This document shows positions 33,815 through 39,078 of a DNA stretch of 64,000 bases, piece by piece (position 1 is the first letter of the stretch; the number at the start of each line of letters is the position of its first letter). A program made the translations under genes and the position numbers. Location of the stretch: contig OY781066.1 of NCBI GenBank assembly GCA_963676395.1, positions 1,312,001 to 1,376,000 of the forward strand, in the 5' to 3' direction. The notes beneath the pieces are model-generated. The model was not told the DNA's origin. It searched no databases and saw only the letters and a list, made by a program, of their open reading frames with translations. The stretch comes from a bacterium. GTDB lineage: Bacteria > Fidelibacterota > Fidelibacteria > Fidelibacterales > Fidelibacteraceae.

Positions 33815-36172
33815 TTAAGTTCTTAAGCTCACCAGCGTTACCCCAACACCACCATGCTCGGGATCGGCAAATTTATAGGATTTTACACGCTTATCTTTGG
33901 CAAGAATATCATGAATGACTTTTTGCAAAATACCGCCACCGGTACCATGGAGGATTTCAATAGATGAAAGTCCGGAAAGTACTGCATTATCAATAAATTT
34001 ATCGCATTCTTCCATGGCGGCTTCGGCACGTTTGCCACGTAGATCTAAATGATAAGAGGAGCCGCTGTGGGAATGTGAGATCATGGTGGAAATACGCTGT
34101 TTACGCTTGCGCGCGGGTTCTAGCCAGTCGGAGTTTAACCTCAATCGCGAGCCATCCACGTCCACCCAGATCTTTCGGGTTTTTTTGTTGATCTCAAGGA
34201 TCTTTCCGTTTTGGCTCATGGTAGGAATGTAAACATCCATTCCGACTGTCAATTCGTGAAGTTTCATAGCTTGAGTCGGCGCTTCAACTGTAAGCTCTCG
34301 TTTTTCGGTTACGACTTGCTTTGCCTTGTTAAAGGTCGCTTGCGCTTCGCGAATGGCATTTTTGCCTGCCTGTTGTTCTTTAATTTGGCGGATACTGGCT
34401 TCCAGTTCCTTGCGCATATCGGCAATCATACTTTCGGCACGTTTAACCGCTTCTTTTTCGGCTTTTTTGTATTTATGGTCGATATCTTTGCGTTTATCTT
34501 CGACGTATTTGAGCTTTTGTTTGTAATCTTTTTCTTTGTCTTTAGCCTCTTTCAACTGAATGTCATAACGGGAGATCTTTCGCTGAAGGTCCACAATAAG
34601 CCTTTCCAGTTTTTCACGCTGGTGACCCACACGAGCTTTTGCGTGCTTGATCACGCGTTCGTCCAACTCAAAACGCGAAGCAATATCAATAGCATATGAC
34701 GAACCGGGAATTCCCATGATAAATTCATAGCTGGGAATAAAATCACGATCATTGAATTTCATACTACCATTCTCGAAGAGGGGGGAGTCGAAAGCCAGGG
34801 TTTTTAATGATCCATGGTGAGTGGTGGCAATGATAGTAGTGCCACGTTCACTGAGTAGTTTTAGGATACCTTCAGCAAGGGCCGCACCTTCGTCGGGGTC
34901 AGTGCCCGTACCAAGTTCATCGATTAGAACCAATGAATTTTCTGTAGCTTCGTTTACGATATTTTTCAGTGATAAAATATGAGAAGAAAATGTCGAGAGA
35001 CCACCATCAATGGATTGTCCGTCTCCGATATCCACAAAGATCTTATCATATTCGGGAAGGATGGAATTTGCATTCAAAGGTAATAAAAAGCCGGCTTGGT
35101 TCATAATAGCAAGAAGGCCGATAGTTTTTAATGTGACTGTTTTACCACCGGCATTGGGCCCCGTGACTATAATCCCGCACTTACCTTCGGGGATCTCCAT
35201 GTTCAAGGGGACCGGCTCTGTGGTAAAATTTAATTCCAGGTTTCGGCCGTTTACAATGTGCAGTCGTTCACCTTCTTCATCCGGTTTTTCCAAATTAAAT
35301 TGTAACGCGAGTTTTGCGTTGGCATGGATAAGGTCGAATTGTTCCAATACATCTATACACAGTTCAACGGATGGTAAATGTTCGCGTAGGCGAGAGCTGG
35401 CTTCTAGCAAGATCCTGCGAATTTCTTGGCGTTCTTCTTGTTTGACTTGATAAAGTTCATTGTTCATTTCAACAATGACCATGGGCTCCACATAGATGGT
35501 CTGGCCGGTTTGAGATTGGTCGTGAATAATACCGGGTGCTTTTGATCGACGCGAGGCACGAATGGGGATGACTTGTCGTCCGTTTCGAAAAGCGACCGTA
35601 TCCTCGGAGGCAATGGATTCGCTTAGCCATTCACCGGCAATTTGTGTGACCTTGCTCCGAATGCGACCATCAAGCTTAGCAAGCTGTTTTCGCAAACGAT
35701 ATAACTCCGAAGATGCTTTATCCGATATCTGCCTGTCGGAATCAAAAAGCGAAAAAATATATTTTTCAAGTTCTTCAAGATCCGGATTATAGGACTTAAT
35801 TAGTTTTTTCAGTTCGGGATATTTATTTTCCCGTTGATGAAAATAAGCGGCAACTCTGCGTGCATGGCGCATGATATTTGCCAGACCGTAGAGCTCTTCT
35901 TCTATTAGCATATTACCTTTAATACGTGCCTTGGCAGTAATCTCACTTTGTATTGGAAAACCGATCAACGGTAATGCCGTGTCTAGCGCCATCAAGTCAC
36001 GCATTTCAAGGTGTTGCTGTTGTTTTTTTAGGTATATGTGCTTTGGTTGAAATGAGCTTAGGTTCAATGCCGCATGTTCGCTCATTTCACATAGGGTATA
36101 TGAGGCCAGTTTTTCTCTGACCGTGTTGTATCCAAGTTGTTGATATATGTTGCTCAATGTGTTGTCCGTCAT
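33815..36172 (-). CDS. mutS2: Endonuclease MutS2
   Basis: TGPNAGGKT, DIGDGQSI..LSTFSSH, DELGTGTDP.EG, TTHH; C-terminal Smr domain (LDLRG, ILHGTG). Confidence 0.95.
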   Translation of the reverse strand: MTDNTLSNIYQQLGYNTVREKLASYTLCEMSEHAALNLSSFQPKHIYLKKQQQHLEMRDLMALDTALPLIGFPIQSEITAKARIKGNMLIEEELYGLANIMRHARRVAAYFHQRENKYPELKKLIKSYNPDLEELEKYIFSLFDSDRQISDKASSELYRLRKQLAKLDGRIRSKVTQIAGEWLSESIASEDTVAFRNGRQVIPIRASRRSKAPGIIHDQSQTGQTIYVEPMVIVEMNNELYQVKQEERQEIRRILLEASSRLREHLPSVELCIDVLEQFDLIHANAKLALQFNLEKPDEEGERLHIVNGRNLELNFTTEPVPLNMEIPEGKCGIIVTGPNAGGKTVTLKTIGLLAIMNQAGFLLPLNANSILPEYDKIFVDIGDGQSIDGGLSTFSSHILSLKNIVNEATENSLVLIDELGTGTDPDEGAALAEGILKLLSERGTTIIATTHHGSLKTLAFDSPLFENGSMKFNDRDFIPSYEFIMGIPGSSYAIDIASRFELDERVIKHAKARVGHQREKLERLIVDLQRKISRYDIQLKEAKDKEKDYKQKLKYVEDKRKDIDHKYKKAEKEAVKRAESMIADMRKELEASIRQIKEQQAGKNAIREAQATFNKAKQVVTEKRELTVEAPTQAMKLHELTVGMDVYIPTMSQNGKILEINKKTRKIWVDVDGSRLRLNSDWLEPARKRKQRISTMISHSHSGSSYHLDLRGKRAEAAMEECDKFIDNAVLSGLSSIEILHGTGGGILQKVIHDILAKDKRVKSYKFADPEHGGVGVTLVSLRT

Positions 36173-36211
36173 CCTGAAACGAAGGCTTCAGCCTTCGGGG
36201 TTCAGGATCTC
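36168..36211 (+). repeat. Left palindromic repeat of the GIY-YIG cassette (CGTC-tagged REP-like)
   Basis: GTCATCCTGAAACGA-AGGCTTCAGCCT-TCGGGGTTCAGGATCTC, preceded by C (giving CGTC); inverted relative to 36598-36642. Confidence 0.9.
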
Positions 36212-36220
36212 GATAAATTT

Positions 36221-36583
36221 TTAATTTTCTCTGTAATATTCGTCTAGTTTATCCATTTTACTGCAAATTTCGATATTTTCGTAATCTTCTTTGCTAAACC
36301 AATCTTTTGATATATCATTTAATCCTTCATTTTCTCTTTTTATTAATTTCCACTTCCAAGCTCGATGCCATTTTTTTAATTGTTTTTCTCGAGCTATCGC
36401 ATCTATCATCAATGGGTATTCTTCATAGTACATCAGCTCCGTTAAATTGTATTTATTACTGAATTCGCAACCATGACCTGATTTATGCTCAAACATCCTT
36501 CTTTCAATATCATTTGTAACACCTATGTATAAAACGGTTCTGTTTTTATTACTTATAATGTAAACATAACTTAATTCGTTCAT
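36221..36583 (-). CDS. Stand-alone GIY-YIG nuclease-family protein
   Basis: YVYI...LYIGVT.D..RR..EH, KY, AIAREKQLKKW.R.WK..LI motifs with the conserved Tyr/Arg/Glu residues intact. Confidence 0.92.
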   Translation of the reverse strand: MNELSYVYIISNKNRTVLYIGVTNDIERRMFEHKSGHGCEFSNKYNLTELMYYEEYPLMIDAIAREKQLKKWHRAWKWKLIKRENEGLNDISKDWFSKEDYENIEICSKMDKLDEYYREN

Positions 36584-36597
36584 GTTTTATCTCACTA

Positions 36598-36642
36598 GAG
36601 ATCCTGAACCCCGATGTCCTTTGGACATCGTTTCAGGATGAC
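36598..36642 (-). repeat. Right palindromic repeat of the GIY-YIG cassette
   Basis: Minus strand GTCATCCTGAAACGA-TGTCCAAAGGACA-TCGGGGTTCAGGATCTC; outer 15 and 17 nt identical to the left copy. Confidence 0.9.
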
Positions 36643-36711
36643 TACTCATATCTTATGGATGCAATATTTTTTAATATTATTCCTTTTATCTTTCTTCTTA
36701 TCTACTACCTA

Positions 36712-39078
36712 CTACATCAAGTTCACCGGATCTCGATTGATGAGTATTTTGACATATTTTTCTTCTTGTTTAAAGTTTTTGGCCACGTGTTGTAAAATAC
36801 TGGCTGTTTTGTTGCCGTTTGGATCTTGCTTGCGATCAGCCTTTACCAGTATTTGCCAGCGAGTGATCTCTTTAATCTTTTCAATAGCTGCGGGGGCGGG
36901 CCCCAAACAATTACATGAAGGCATATTGTTTAATAATCGCTTTTGAAGTCTAAATGATGCCGCCTGAACTTCACGTGCATTTTTTCCGCTGACCCGAAGT
37001 AAAAAGAGTCTGCTGAACGGCGGATAGGTCAACTCCCTGCGATGAAACAGCTCAAGATTATAAAATTGTCTTAACTCCAGTTTGGCTGCCATTTTAATGA
37101 CGGCTTCTTCGGGAGAAAAAGTTTGTATATATACTTCTCCGGGATACTTCGATCGGCCGGCTCTGCCACTGACCTGATAGATCAATTGAAATAATCGTTC
37201 GTTGGCACGGTGATCGGGAATTCCCATGCCGGTATCGGCATTAATAATAGCTACCATTGTGACTTTTGGGAAATCCAAACCTTTTGCGATCATTTGAGTT
37301 CCAAGCAAGATATCTTGTTTGCCCTCTTCGAATTCGTTTAAAATCCTCGCGTGTGCATGTTTTGTGCGTGTGGTATCCATATCCATTCTAGCAACTCGAG
37401 CATTTGGGAAAAGTCTCGATAGCTCTTCTTCGATCTTTTGTGTTCCATGCCCCATAGGCTCTAATGATATCGAACCGCAGTGTTTACAAGCCTTTGTCAT
37501 GGGGAAATTAGCATTACAAGAATGGCACACCAGTTTATCCAATTTTTTATGATATGTCAATGCTACCGAACAATTTGGACACTCATGGATCTCATTGCAT
37601 TCACTGCAAACTAACACGGTATTATACCCGCGACGGTTCTGCAGAATGATCGCCTGTTTTTCATCTTTTAAGGTTTTTTGTAGACCTTCTAATAGCTCCC
37701 GACTAAACAGTCCTTGTCGGGGTGCTTCCAGCATGTCGATCAAATGCACCTTAGGCAGCTTTGCTTCTCCAAAGCGCCGAGTCATTTCAAGTCTGTCATA
37801 GCGGCCAAGAGCCGAAAGGTAATAGCTCTCCAGGCTTGGGGTTGCAGAACCTAAAACGATGGGAATACCAATAATGTGAGCATACATCACAGCCGCATCG
37901 CGTGCATGGTAGCGAGGTGCGGGTTCTTCTTGTTTGTATGAGCTTTCCTGCTCTTCGTCTACAACGATCAGGCCAATATTGTTCAAGGGTGCAAGAAGAG
38001 CCGATCGTGCGCCTACAAGAACATGGATGGCTCCTTTTTGGATCTGGGTCCAGGTCCAAAGTCGCTCCGCATCACTCATTTGAGAGTGCCAGATAGCTAC
38101 TTTCTCACCGAAGGTGGAGCGGAAACGAGCGGCTATCTGCGGAGTGATGGCAATTTCGGGTACAAGTATCAGAACTTTTTTCCCCGCGGCTAATTGTTTT
38201 TTGGCTAATTCAATATAGACTTCGGTTTTACCACTGCCGGTTACACCATGGAGTAAAGCAGGGTAAAAACGGTTAAAGTTTTTTTCGATTTTAGCGATCA
38301 CTTGTTTTTGCTCATCAGAAAGTCGAACATCACGTACACGTTCTTTCACAAGATGTTCAAATGGATCGGCAGGCACTTCCATTTCACAGGCCTCAAGTAC
38401 TTCGTTTTCCAGCATTTTGTTCAGAACGGCTGCTGAAACACCCAGCTTGCGTTGTATTACGCGCTTTTCTTCTTTGGGTGTATCGAGCGAAGATAGAAGA
38501 TTGATAACATCTCGTTGCCGTTTTGTTACTTCGGCATTGGGGTTGATCAATTTAACCGCTTTGACAATTCTGGCTTTCTTGGCTTTTGGGAAAATATTGT
38601 CAATGTAAAGACGACCTGCTTTTAATCCTTCATGCAGTTCTTTTTGTCGAGCTTCTGGTAAATCTAAAAAGGCCAGCATCGAAAGACCGCCCTCGGGAAC
38701 TTCAGGCCAATTTTCGCGATCTTCATCATTCTTGATAAAACAATACTGGGTGCGCTTAAAGCCGGCTTCCGAAGGGTGAGCAGCACGGCAACACATACCG
38801 ATGGGAGCCAAATAATAATCGGCCATCCACTTGATAAGTTTGATCAGATCCTCAGAGAAAATAGGGGAGGTATCGATCACATCGGAAATGCTTTTAAGTT
38901 TATATGCGGGTTTAGCCGGAAGCACAGGGAACACATCAAGACAATATCCGATCTGTGAACGCGCCCCAAAAGAAGCATTTACGCGCATTCCCGGCTTAAG
39001 TTTTTCAACAAAATCCTCGGGTACCGTGTAGGTATATGTCTGATATACGTCCTGTGGAAAGGCTAGAGAGCAATACAT
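36712..39078 (-). CDS. priA: Primosomal protein N' (replication restart helicase)
   Basis: GVTGSGKTEVY, LVPEI, VDEEQE, NRRGY, four CxxC pairs, GTQMIAKGLDF, QVSGRAGR. Confidence 0.97.
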   Translation of the reverse strand: MYCSLAFPQDVYQTYTYTVPEDFVEKLKPGMRVNASFGARSQIGYCLDVFPVLPAKPAYKLKSISDVIDTSPIFSEDLIKLIKWMADYYLAPIGMCCRAAHPSEAGFKRTQYCFIKNDEDRENWPEVPEGGLSMLAFLDLPEARQKELHEGLKAGRLYIDNIFPKAKKARIVKAVKLINPNAEVTKRQRDVINLLSSLDTPKEEKRVIQRKLGVSAAVLNKMLENEVLEACEMEVPADPFEHLVKERVRDVRLSDEQKQVIAKIEKNFNRFYPALLHGVTGSGKTEVYIELAKKQLAAGKKVLILVPEIAITPQIAARFRSTFGEKVAIWHSQMSDAERLWTWTQIQKGAIHVLVGARSALLAPLNNIGLIVVDEEQESSYKQEEPAPRYHARDAAVMYAHIIGIPIVLGSATPSLESYYLSALGRYDRLEMTRRFGEAKLPKVHLIDMLEAPRQGLFSRELLEGLQKTLKDEKQAIILQNRRGYNTVLVCSECNEIHECPNCSVALTYHKKLDKLVCHSCNANFPMTKACKHCGSISLEPMGHGTQKIEEELSRLFPNARVARMDMDTTRTKHAHARILNEFEEGKQDILLGTQMIAKGLDFPKVTMVAIINADTGMGIPDHRANERLFQLIYQVSGRAGRSKYPGEVYIQTFSPEEAVIKMAAKLELRQFYNLELFHRRELTYPPFSRLFLLRVSGKNAREVQAASFRLQKRLLNNMPSCNCLGPAPAAIEKIKEITRWQILVKADRKQDPNGNKTASILQHVAKNFKQEEKYVKILINRDPVNLM

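Follow-up and report, generated by a model that had tools for sequence, protein, structure and literature searches.

The question raised by this locus is why a small nuclease gene should lie between two inverted hairpins within a string of replication and repair genes, and whether the enzyme and the hairpins belong together. The locus is part of a 64,000-nt window (the whole stretch of DNA analysed here, positions 1,312,001 to 1,376,000 of contig OY781066.1, assembly GCA_963676395.1) from a bacterium of the Fidelibacteraceae; its 475-nt unit, hairpin to hairpin, is very probably an Ssn-type cassette, in which a gene for a GIY-YIG nuclease of single-stranded DNA (ssDNA) is bracketed by inverted cognate hairpins. 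The hairpins would be a variant of the CGTCAT-tagged NTS/SRM elements, also termed CGTC-REP (REP, repetitive extragenic palindromic). A preliminary description made from the sequence alone had placed a 120-aa GIY-YIG gene 9 and 14 nt from two inverted repeats, and the coordinates agree, with 9 nt between the left hairpin and the open reading frame (ORF; 36212-36220) and 14 nt between the ORF and the right hairpin (36584-36597). The cassette consists of the following parts, in window coordinates:

36168..36211, + strand: left hairpin, SRM-like, 44 nt, in forward sense on this strand (from sequence and fold)
36221..36583, - strand: ssn-like gene, 120 aa, with a GIY-YIG domain at residues 5-77 and a C-terminal extension of ~25 aa (from Pfam, alignment and model)
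36598..36642, - strand: right hairpin, 45 nt, in forward sense on this strand (from sequence and fold)

The Ssn family (CDD cd10448) was defined by Chenal et al. (2025, Nat Commun, PMC11893778). SsnA of N. meningitidis is described there as a 94 aa protein that binds the hairpin CGTCATTCCCGCGMAVGCGGGAATCYRG solely as ssDNA and makes its cut a few nucleotides upstream; the hairpins of the family are CGTCAT-tagged (PMC11893778). Cleavage depends most on the three nucleotides preceding the palindrome and binding on the C right after it; the loop of the NTS is free and can be extended, and SsnA was inactive on RNA and on double-stranded DNA (dsDNA) in the experiments reported (PMC11893778). The motif is found near 71% of Ssn homologs, with copies on both sides in 42%, and the hairpin-gene-hairpin layout was likened by the same authors to an insertion sequence (IS), with a parallel drawn to REPs and their RAYT transposases (PMC11893778). 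The pairing of such a nuclease with CGTCAT hairpins is already established, so that the window adds no new principle; the system had been put forward beforehand as a candidate novelty, a claim overtaken by the pairing, layout and IS-like and REP-RAYT analogies published in March 2025 (PMC11893778).

The window protein is, by sequence, a clear homolog of the characterized SsnA nucleases. It matches the Pfam family GIY-YIG (PF01541) with an E-value of 2e-17, and GIY-YIG and T5orf172 are the only Pfam families matched. A tblastn search of a 7.3-Gb plasmid collection led to a chromosome-sized N. gonorrhoeae record (E 9e-17, 44% identity), in which the matched ORF is 94 aa long, carries Y6, Y17 and E64 and has 7 canonical NTS copies around it; on the grounds of this length, these residues and the 7 neighbouring NTS it was taken as the SsnA ortholog and used as the standard of comparison instead of N. 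meningitidis SsnA. By BLASTP the window protein is identical to it at 40 of 90 positions (44%, E 1e-26), and with this ORF as reference it falls within the homology threshold of Chenal et al., a tblastn E < 1e-10 to Neisseria SsnA. Among 19 aligned sequences, the gonococcal ORF included, the residues Y8, Y19, G21, R29, H33, R65, E66 and K67 are invariant; the catalytic Y6, Y17 and E64 of SsnA, which were the positions mutated by Chenal et al. (PMC11893778), correspond to Y8, Y19 and E66 of the window protein, all of which are kept. The protein is 120 aa long, compared with about 94 aa for a small single-domain Ssn protein, and has a C-terminal extension that is shared by the closest (Neomarinimicrobiota) relatives only. 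The AlphaFold model is moderate (pLDDT 71.5), with a GIY-YIG core and one C-terminal helix at a pLDDT of about 64, and therefore nothing is claimed for the extension. A Foldseek search of the PDB gave no match at E <= 0.001, the best matches being GIY-YIG proteins, and the best solved relative, UPF0213 protein 1zg2, is weak (phmmer E 1.1e-4, Foldseek E 5.8e-3). The sole NCBIfam match, to a group I intron endonuclease (TIGR01453), scored 21.6 bits against a cut-off of 56.05 bits and was rejected.

When folded as ssDNA, with 200 shuffles as control, both hairpins adopt the structure that had been proposed for them: the GTC tag is unpaired, and a lower stem of 8 bp (ATCCTGAA/TTCAGGAT) is joined through an A / GGG internal loop to an upper stem of 7 or 8 bp. 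At -12.6 and -13.2 kcal/mol the folds have z-scores of -3.9 and -4.5, and 0/200 shuffles fold as well. The left hairpin has its GTC tag after C and an upper stem of CGAAGGC-TTCA-GCCTTCG, then CTC; the right hairpin has its tag after A, the same lower stem and internal loop, and an upper stem of CGATGTCC-AAA-GGACATCG. The earlier observation that the outer 15 and 17 nt are identical while the inner stem-loops differ and still pair is therefore borne out: the outer arms of one hairpin (15 nt and 17 nt) are 100% complementary to those of the other, and the upper stems differ in sequence with pairing kept. The complete motif is present in 2 copies in the window, for which 0.00 are expected (100 shuffles). 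The determinants of SRM function that were tested are a GTC 5' of the palindrome, a C 3' of it and an oriented hairpin of 20-50 nt by an ssn gene; both window hairpins have all of them, each reading GTC + ATCCTGAA...TTCAGGAT + C over 44-45 nt and flanking the ssn gene.

The varying upper stem was followed through 28 distinct two-tier hairpins, of which 2 are from the window, 1 is from elsewhere in the same genome and the rest are from congener loci; part of the congener copies were chosen by length, none by pairing. In the alignment 97.9% of cells pair, all 8/8 upper-stem pairs have changed on both sides, and the covariation score is 0.443; shuffling gives 0.135, with 0/500 shuffles attaining the observed score, and sliding of the partner gives 0.03-0.14. 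Because this upper-stem covariation is strong across the 28 copies, the covarying core is real, as the preliminary description held; its further step, that covariation implies selection on ssDNA or RNA structure, does not follow. The loop region is not read by SsnA (PMC11893778), so that the covarying core need not mean selection, and copying of one arm from the other would also yield perfect palindromes; an RNA role of the hairpins is unlikely by analogy, as SsnA did not act on RNA in the published assays (PMC11893778).

The association of such hairpins with ssn genes extends well beyond the window. A query of species-representative genomes with the single window protein found no relative; an alignment query found 479, and the best 80 loci of these were analysed, with some overlap with the G-numbered genomes of the genus. 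Outward-tagged hairpins stand on both sides in 31 of the 80 loci, upstream only in 9, downstream only in 31 and on neither side in 9, so that at least one is found in 71/80; the count of tagged hairpins is 183, compared with 11 in a reversed control, and 1 dubious hairpin match was found in the 81,048 nt of 24 control loci around priA. The expectation that flanks of homologs would carry such hairpins is thus upheld. The closest relatives are metagenome-assembled genomes (MAGs) of Candidatus Neomarinimicrobiota, with 56-73% identity; further relatives come from MAGs of Bacteroidota (Flavobacteriales, Cytophagales, Chitinophagaceae, Bacteroidales), Dadabacteria, Thermodesulfobacteriota and Balneolaceae. 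The commonest hairpin stems in the 80 loci are ATCCTGA (67), ATGCTGA (54), ATTCCGA (23) and ATGCCGA (10), and simple forms of 25 nt with 3-5-nt loops occur in relatives. Among 154 distinct hairpin instances taken from related loci, GTC is preceded by C in 55% and by G in 3%, and ATC is followed by T in 87%. The same 7-nt stem is found at both ends in 19/32 cassettes with both ends detected.

The window protein, used as a query, has matches in 27/41 genomes, this genome (G000) included; within the genus there are 0 to 13 per genome, several with internal stops. The close gene copies (E <= 1e-29, n=25, genus loci) were scored by script for outward-tagged hairpins, which flank both sides in 14, the downstream side only in 8 and the upstream side only in 1, while 2/25 have no hairpin in the expected orientation; among the 11 incomplete copies, 5 have a mismatched upstream hairpin when inspected by eye (L007, L033, L014, L015, L016) and 2 are cut by contig ends within 65 nt upstream (L012, L060). 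The pattern GTCATCCYGA-N3-40-TCRGGATC has 0 to 87 matches per genus genome and, read backwards, 0 in 22/22. At one orthologous locus (L009 in G006 and L010 in G011) both cassette ends are of the CCCGAAC type in one of the two species and of the CCTGAAT type in the other, so the two ends have changed together. The proposal that the hairpins co-vary with the phylogeny of the protein fared less well: on the protein tree the downstream stem requires 28 changes, where 200 shuffles give a mean of 35.5 and a minimum of 30, and the upstream stem 12 compared with a shuffled 12.9, a weak tracking that is confounded by kinship and is no demonstration of co-evolution.

In the 2.3-Mb genome itself a strict pattern yields 3 hairpin copies, and looser rules yield 5 two-tier copies and 2 with other inserts, which gives about 7 convincing hairpins; a relaxed rule yields 11, compared with 0 in the reversed control. 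A generic detector for GTC followed by any 7-bp stem found 229, compared with 136 in the reversed genome, and was too noisy, so that family-specific rules were used instead. The five solo hairpins inspected all lie between ORFs. At G000:C1:2223098-2223175 a two-tier hairpin is followed 9 nt on by a simple hairpin of another stem type (GTCATCCCGAGCG...CGAGGGATCTC), and therefore more than one hairpin subtype coexist in this genome.

Given the SsnA homology, the conservation of the critical hairpin nucleotides and the flanking hairpins far above background, the window protein is very likely, on sequence grounds, the cognate enzyme of the hairpins that flank it. Several observations weigh against the Ssn-type assignment of the cassette. 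The published SRM motif has 0 matches in the cassette, 2 in this genome compared with 6 in the reversed control (no enrichment), and matches in 0/80 related loci; the same regular expression recovers 7/7 NTS in the gonococcal locus. The identity to the characterized clade is just 44%, and the protein carries the extra ~25 C-terminal aa. With about 7 hairpins there is no expansion in this genome, and the window ssn copy is without the ~65-nt leader bearing a TGTGA-N5-TCAC palindrome. Finally, in G014 there are 87 hairpins and no match to the Ssn profile, though this MAG is just 87% complete. As to the first of these points, the failure of the SRM motif to detect this hairpin class may account for the lack of SRM enrichment in Bacteroidota genomes of the table of Chenal et al., where cd10448-positive Ekhidna lutea (14 vs 8.87) and Gramella jeungdoensis (5 vs 8.21) are listed without enrichment (PMC11893778); the relatives found here include MAGs that are labelled Ekhidna sp. 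and Christiangramia.

How the cassette came to its present place can be read from the junction on which it stands, for which the following parts are needed in addition:

33815..36172, - strand: mutS2, context gene with MutS_V and Smr domains (from Pfam)
36155..36172, - strand: mutS2 start region (from sequence and congener comparison)
36643..36711, no strand: AT-rich spacer of 69 nt, from the right hairpin to the priA stop codon (from congener comparison)
36712..39078, - strand: priA, context gene (from Pfam)

The ssn-like gene, the MutS2 gene and the PriA gene are all co-oriented, as described beforehand and as identified by their Pfam domains and shared strand. In this lineage the cassette was gained by insertion at the priA-mutS2 junction, because that junction is tight in 15/15 congeners that have both genes on one locus: the aligned ends are -3 to 14 nt apart, compared with 542 nt here, and none of these 15 junctions has a hairpin. 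The junction DNA here is made up of the 69-nt spacer, the 475-nt hairpin-gene-hairpin unit and 10 nt before the mutS2 start of the relatives; the spacer has no counterpart in the 15 congeners and is part of the extra junction DNA. The cassette is also AT-richer than its neighbours, as had been stated, with 31-35% G+C compared with 41-47% for the neighbouring DNA. At a second locus G011 and G006 have the cassette, and G007, the flanks of which are 90-91% identical to those of G011, is without it. As the preliminary description noted, no target-site duplication (TSD) is visible at the hairpin borders in the window; neither the exact insertion borders nor a TSD can be read from the filled/empty comparison at either of the two loci, because the spacers are entirely different from one congener to the next.

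The annotated ATG of mutS2 (36172-36170) falls within the left hairpin, being formed by the AT of the stem and the G of the tag. The mutS2 of the 15 congeners begins M-(E/Q)-K-L-Y-Q-Q, which aligns with a TTG at 36157-36155, so the cassette insertion may, judging from the sequence, have supplied mutS2 with a new in-frame start five codons upstream. Expression of the window ssn gene is probably by read-through from priA. In cassettes of the Neomarinimicrobiota clade (loci L101-L109, L113, L115, L117, L118, L135, L063 and L067) a TGTGA-N5-TCAC palindrome of CRP/FNR-like form stands at or near -62 (-46 to -64) from the start codon; 15/83 distinct related upstream regions have it, and none of the reversed controls does.

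By homology to SsnA, the protein would bind the hairpin only in single-stranded DNA, recognizing the AT-started stem and the C after that stem, and its nick would be placed a few nucleotides 5' of the GTC tag. As the tags point outward, the predicted nicks lie just outside the cassette, one per strand, and the nick on the mutS2 side would fall within the first codons of mutS2. Here the system might serve, as in Neisseria, to restrict the recombination of incoming ssDNA, or it might persist as a selfish element.

Compatible with an Ssn-type cassette, and adding nuclease-driven spread to it, is the possibility that the unit is an autonomous mobile element, in which the nuclease causes both the cassette and gene-less hairpin doublets to move, much as REPtrons and REPINs or IS200/IS605 do but with a GIY-YIG enzyme; this is considered possible and somewhat doubtful. 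The presence or absence of the cassette at two orthologous loci is in keeping with it, as are the 0 to 13 gene matches per genome in one genus, several of them with internal stops, the range of 0-87 hairpins per genome, the AT-richness of the cassette relative to its surroundings, the gene-less doublets of ~120 nt with the same outward-tagged termini in G014 and the tandem half-sites of the 5' arm outside many hairpins; the IS-like layout was also remarked by Chenal et al. (PMC11893778). Against movement stand the lack of a TSD and of readable borders with hypervariable spacers, the extra junction DNA (542 nt) in excess of the hairpin-to-hairpin unit (475 nt), the single close copy in this genome, so that no recent transposition is seen, and the abundance of hairpins in G014, where no nuclease gene was found. 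The inverted hairpins would moreover put the predicted nicks on opposite strands, unlike those of IS200/IS605, and the weak tracking of the hairpin stem by the protein tree speaks against nuclease-driven spread in particular. GIY-YIG enzymes hydrolyse DNA and are not known to form covalent intermediates or to carry out strand transfer. The proposal that the GIY-YIG protein both recognizes and spreads the hairpins is accordingly supported in its first half, by the SsnA homology, the critical nucleotides kept and the flanking hairpins; its second half lacks a known strand-transfer chemistry and a readable border or TSD. In addition, 5 of the 22 congeners (MAGs 70-93% complete) have 3-87 hairpins, and no close homolog of this Ssn subfamily was found in them: G014 is the one with 87 hairpins, and G021, G005, G008 and G001 (70-93% complete) have 3-17 hairpins and only weak matches of another clade.

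A bolder version, improbable on present evidence, is that Ssn cassettes with CCTGAA or GCTGAA stems are active selfish elements of Marinimicrobia and Bacteroidota, in which nicks outside the cassette are followed by host replication or repair that copies or relocates the cassette and the doublets. If so, they would represent a hydrolytic, non-HUH route to REP/REPIN-like spread and would provide a mobilizing enzyme for the 'orphan' CGTC REP superfamily, and the covarying second-tier stems and tandem 5'-arm half-sites would be the footprints of the process. The doublets of G014 (L200-L210) have a hairpin and an inverted hairpin at the two ends of a conserved 72-nt core, which in turn forms an inverted repeat, and there are larger versions that contain nested repeats; no similarity of the doublet core to the cassette interior was found. 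The half-sites occur as 1-3 tandem units of 23-24 nt (the tag and 5' arm, GTCATCCTGAAC plus about 11 nt) outside many hairpins (L007, L015, L059, L200-L210), and a degenerate half-site candidate lies about 21 nt outside the right hairpin of the window (36659-36670).

It is likewise improbable that the nuclease and its few hairpins represent a domesticated host function that cuts incoming or exposed ssDNA and so limits recombination or transformation, as in N. meningitidis. The knockout in that species raises transformation by NTS-bearing DNA 5-fold (PMC11893778), and here the ORF is intact, all invariant residues are kept and the gene is co-oriented within a string of replication and repair genes; the position is not conserved, however, being empty in 15/15 congeners, the copy number is erratic with pseudogenes in the genus, and about 7 hairpins in 2.3 Mb offer little target for a genome-wide role. 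That the hairpins have an ordinary regulatory or structural function as RNA or dsDNA (as terminators, mRNA stabilizers or REP-like protein-binding sites), with the nuclease gene between them by coincidence, is very improbable: both would be transcribed with priA-ssn-mutS2 and would fold as RNA too, the solo copies in this genome are intergenic and RNA roles for REPs were considered by Di Nocera et al. (PMC3733652), but neither window hairpin is followed by a T-run, Rfam has no match to positions 35000-38000 in E-value mode, the outward-tagged and orientation-specific bracket recurs in 71/80 loci, and SsnA was reported as inactive on RNA or dsDNA (PMC11893778).

The Ssn-type cassette preferred here can be set beside the systems that it resembles. 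It shares with the published Ssn system a small GIY-YIG protein, with 44% identity to the gonococcal SsnA-type ORF and Y6/Y17/E64 kept, the hairpin-gene-hairpin layout, and a hairpin with a GTC tag, an AT-started stem, a C after the stem and a free loop region (PMC11893778); it differs in its stem (CCTGAA in place of TCCCGCG), in a second-tier stem-loop of 26-27 nt where the NTS has a 3-nt loop, in the 120 aa of its C-terminally extended protein, and in a Candidatus Neomarinimicrobiota-like host with only about 7 hairpins. The CGTC-tagged REP superfamily was described from Bacteroidetes, Chlorobi and other phyla, and was reported as having no RAYT partner or dedicated enzyme (Di Nocera 2013, PMC3733652), in agreement with the preliminary description. 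Alike in both are the terminal (C)GTC tag, the 8-bp stem starting with AT and head-to-head inverted pairs, and the window hairpins conform to the published tag and stem (CGTC, TGTC or CCTC; an 8-9-bp stem from AT), the AGTC tag of the right copy being an unlisted variant (PMC3733652). They depart from the superfamily in loop, tail and abundance: 4-5-nt loops, CCA-like tails and an abundant family are described there, whereas a long structured insert, a CTC tail, one AGTC-tagged copy and a low copy number (about 7) are found here (PMC3733652).

The resemblance extends to other elements in which an enzyme is paired with hairpins. As in REPtrons, an enzyme gene stands between inverted hairpin copies, the repeat is also scattered, and gene-less doublets occur in relatives; the cassette differs in having a GIY-YIG hydrolase where REPtrons have an HUH tyrosine (Y1) transposase, and a GTC in place of a GTAG tag, and thus is no REPtron. 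Nunvar in 2010 and Bertels and Rainey in 2011 reportedly described RAYT genes flanked by inverted GTAG-tagged REPs, the REPtrons and REPINs. In IS200/IS605 subterminal ssDNA hairpins are recognized and cut a short distance away by a covalent HUH mechanism, with the ends direct on one strand; recognition of an ssDNA hairpin and a nearby cut would, by homology, also apply to the window protein, whose hairpins are inverted and whose chemistry would be hydrolytic. The catalytic core is that of the GIY-YIG homing endonucleases (I-TevI type) and of UPF0213 (BH0048, PDB 1zg2); the window protein is without the homing-type DNA-binding module, and its similarity to UPF0213 is weak, far below that to the SsnA-type ORF. 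A classical IS or miniature inverted-repeat transposable element (MITE) does not fit, as there is no transposase gene and no visible TSD. In the literature searched for a link of GIY-YIG enzymes to REPs or RAYTs, most subscription journals being outside its coverage, only Chenal et al. was related.

What the locus adds is modest and threefold. Many Ssn genes of Marinimicrobia and Bacteroidota have at their sides hairpins of a class missed by the published SRM motif; the priA-mutS2 comparison is clean evidence for the gain of a cassette at a housekeeping junction, which bears on whether such cassettes move; and the natural two-tier hairpin with its C-terminally extended enzyme could widen the range of Ssn/hairpin specificities for ssDNA tools.

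The genome contains four GIY-YIG matches, namely the window gene, UvrC and two small ORFs of another clade, at G000:C1:2330101-2330358 (L193) and 1767481-1767726 (L194), which are 33% and 31% identical to the window protein. One of the two lies about 190 nt downstream of a tRNA-Met gene, with a direct repeat of ~45 nt resembling a tRNA 3' end on both sides, and the other about 185 nt downstream of the tmRNA gene. In the congeners G005 and G008 this tRNA-linked GIY-YIG clade is found between tandem copies of tRNA-Asp (L024, L026), two of which are called by ARAGORN at 86-87 nt because of a GTCCCGAC-nnnn-GTCGGGATC hairpin in the T-arm region.

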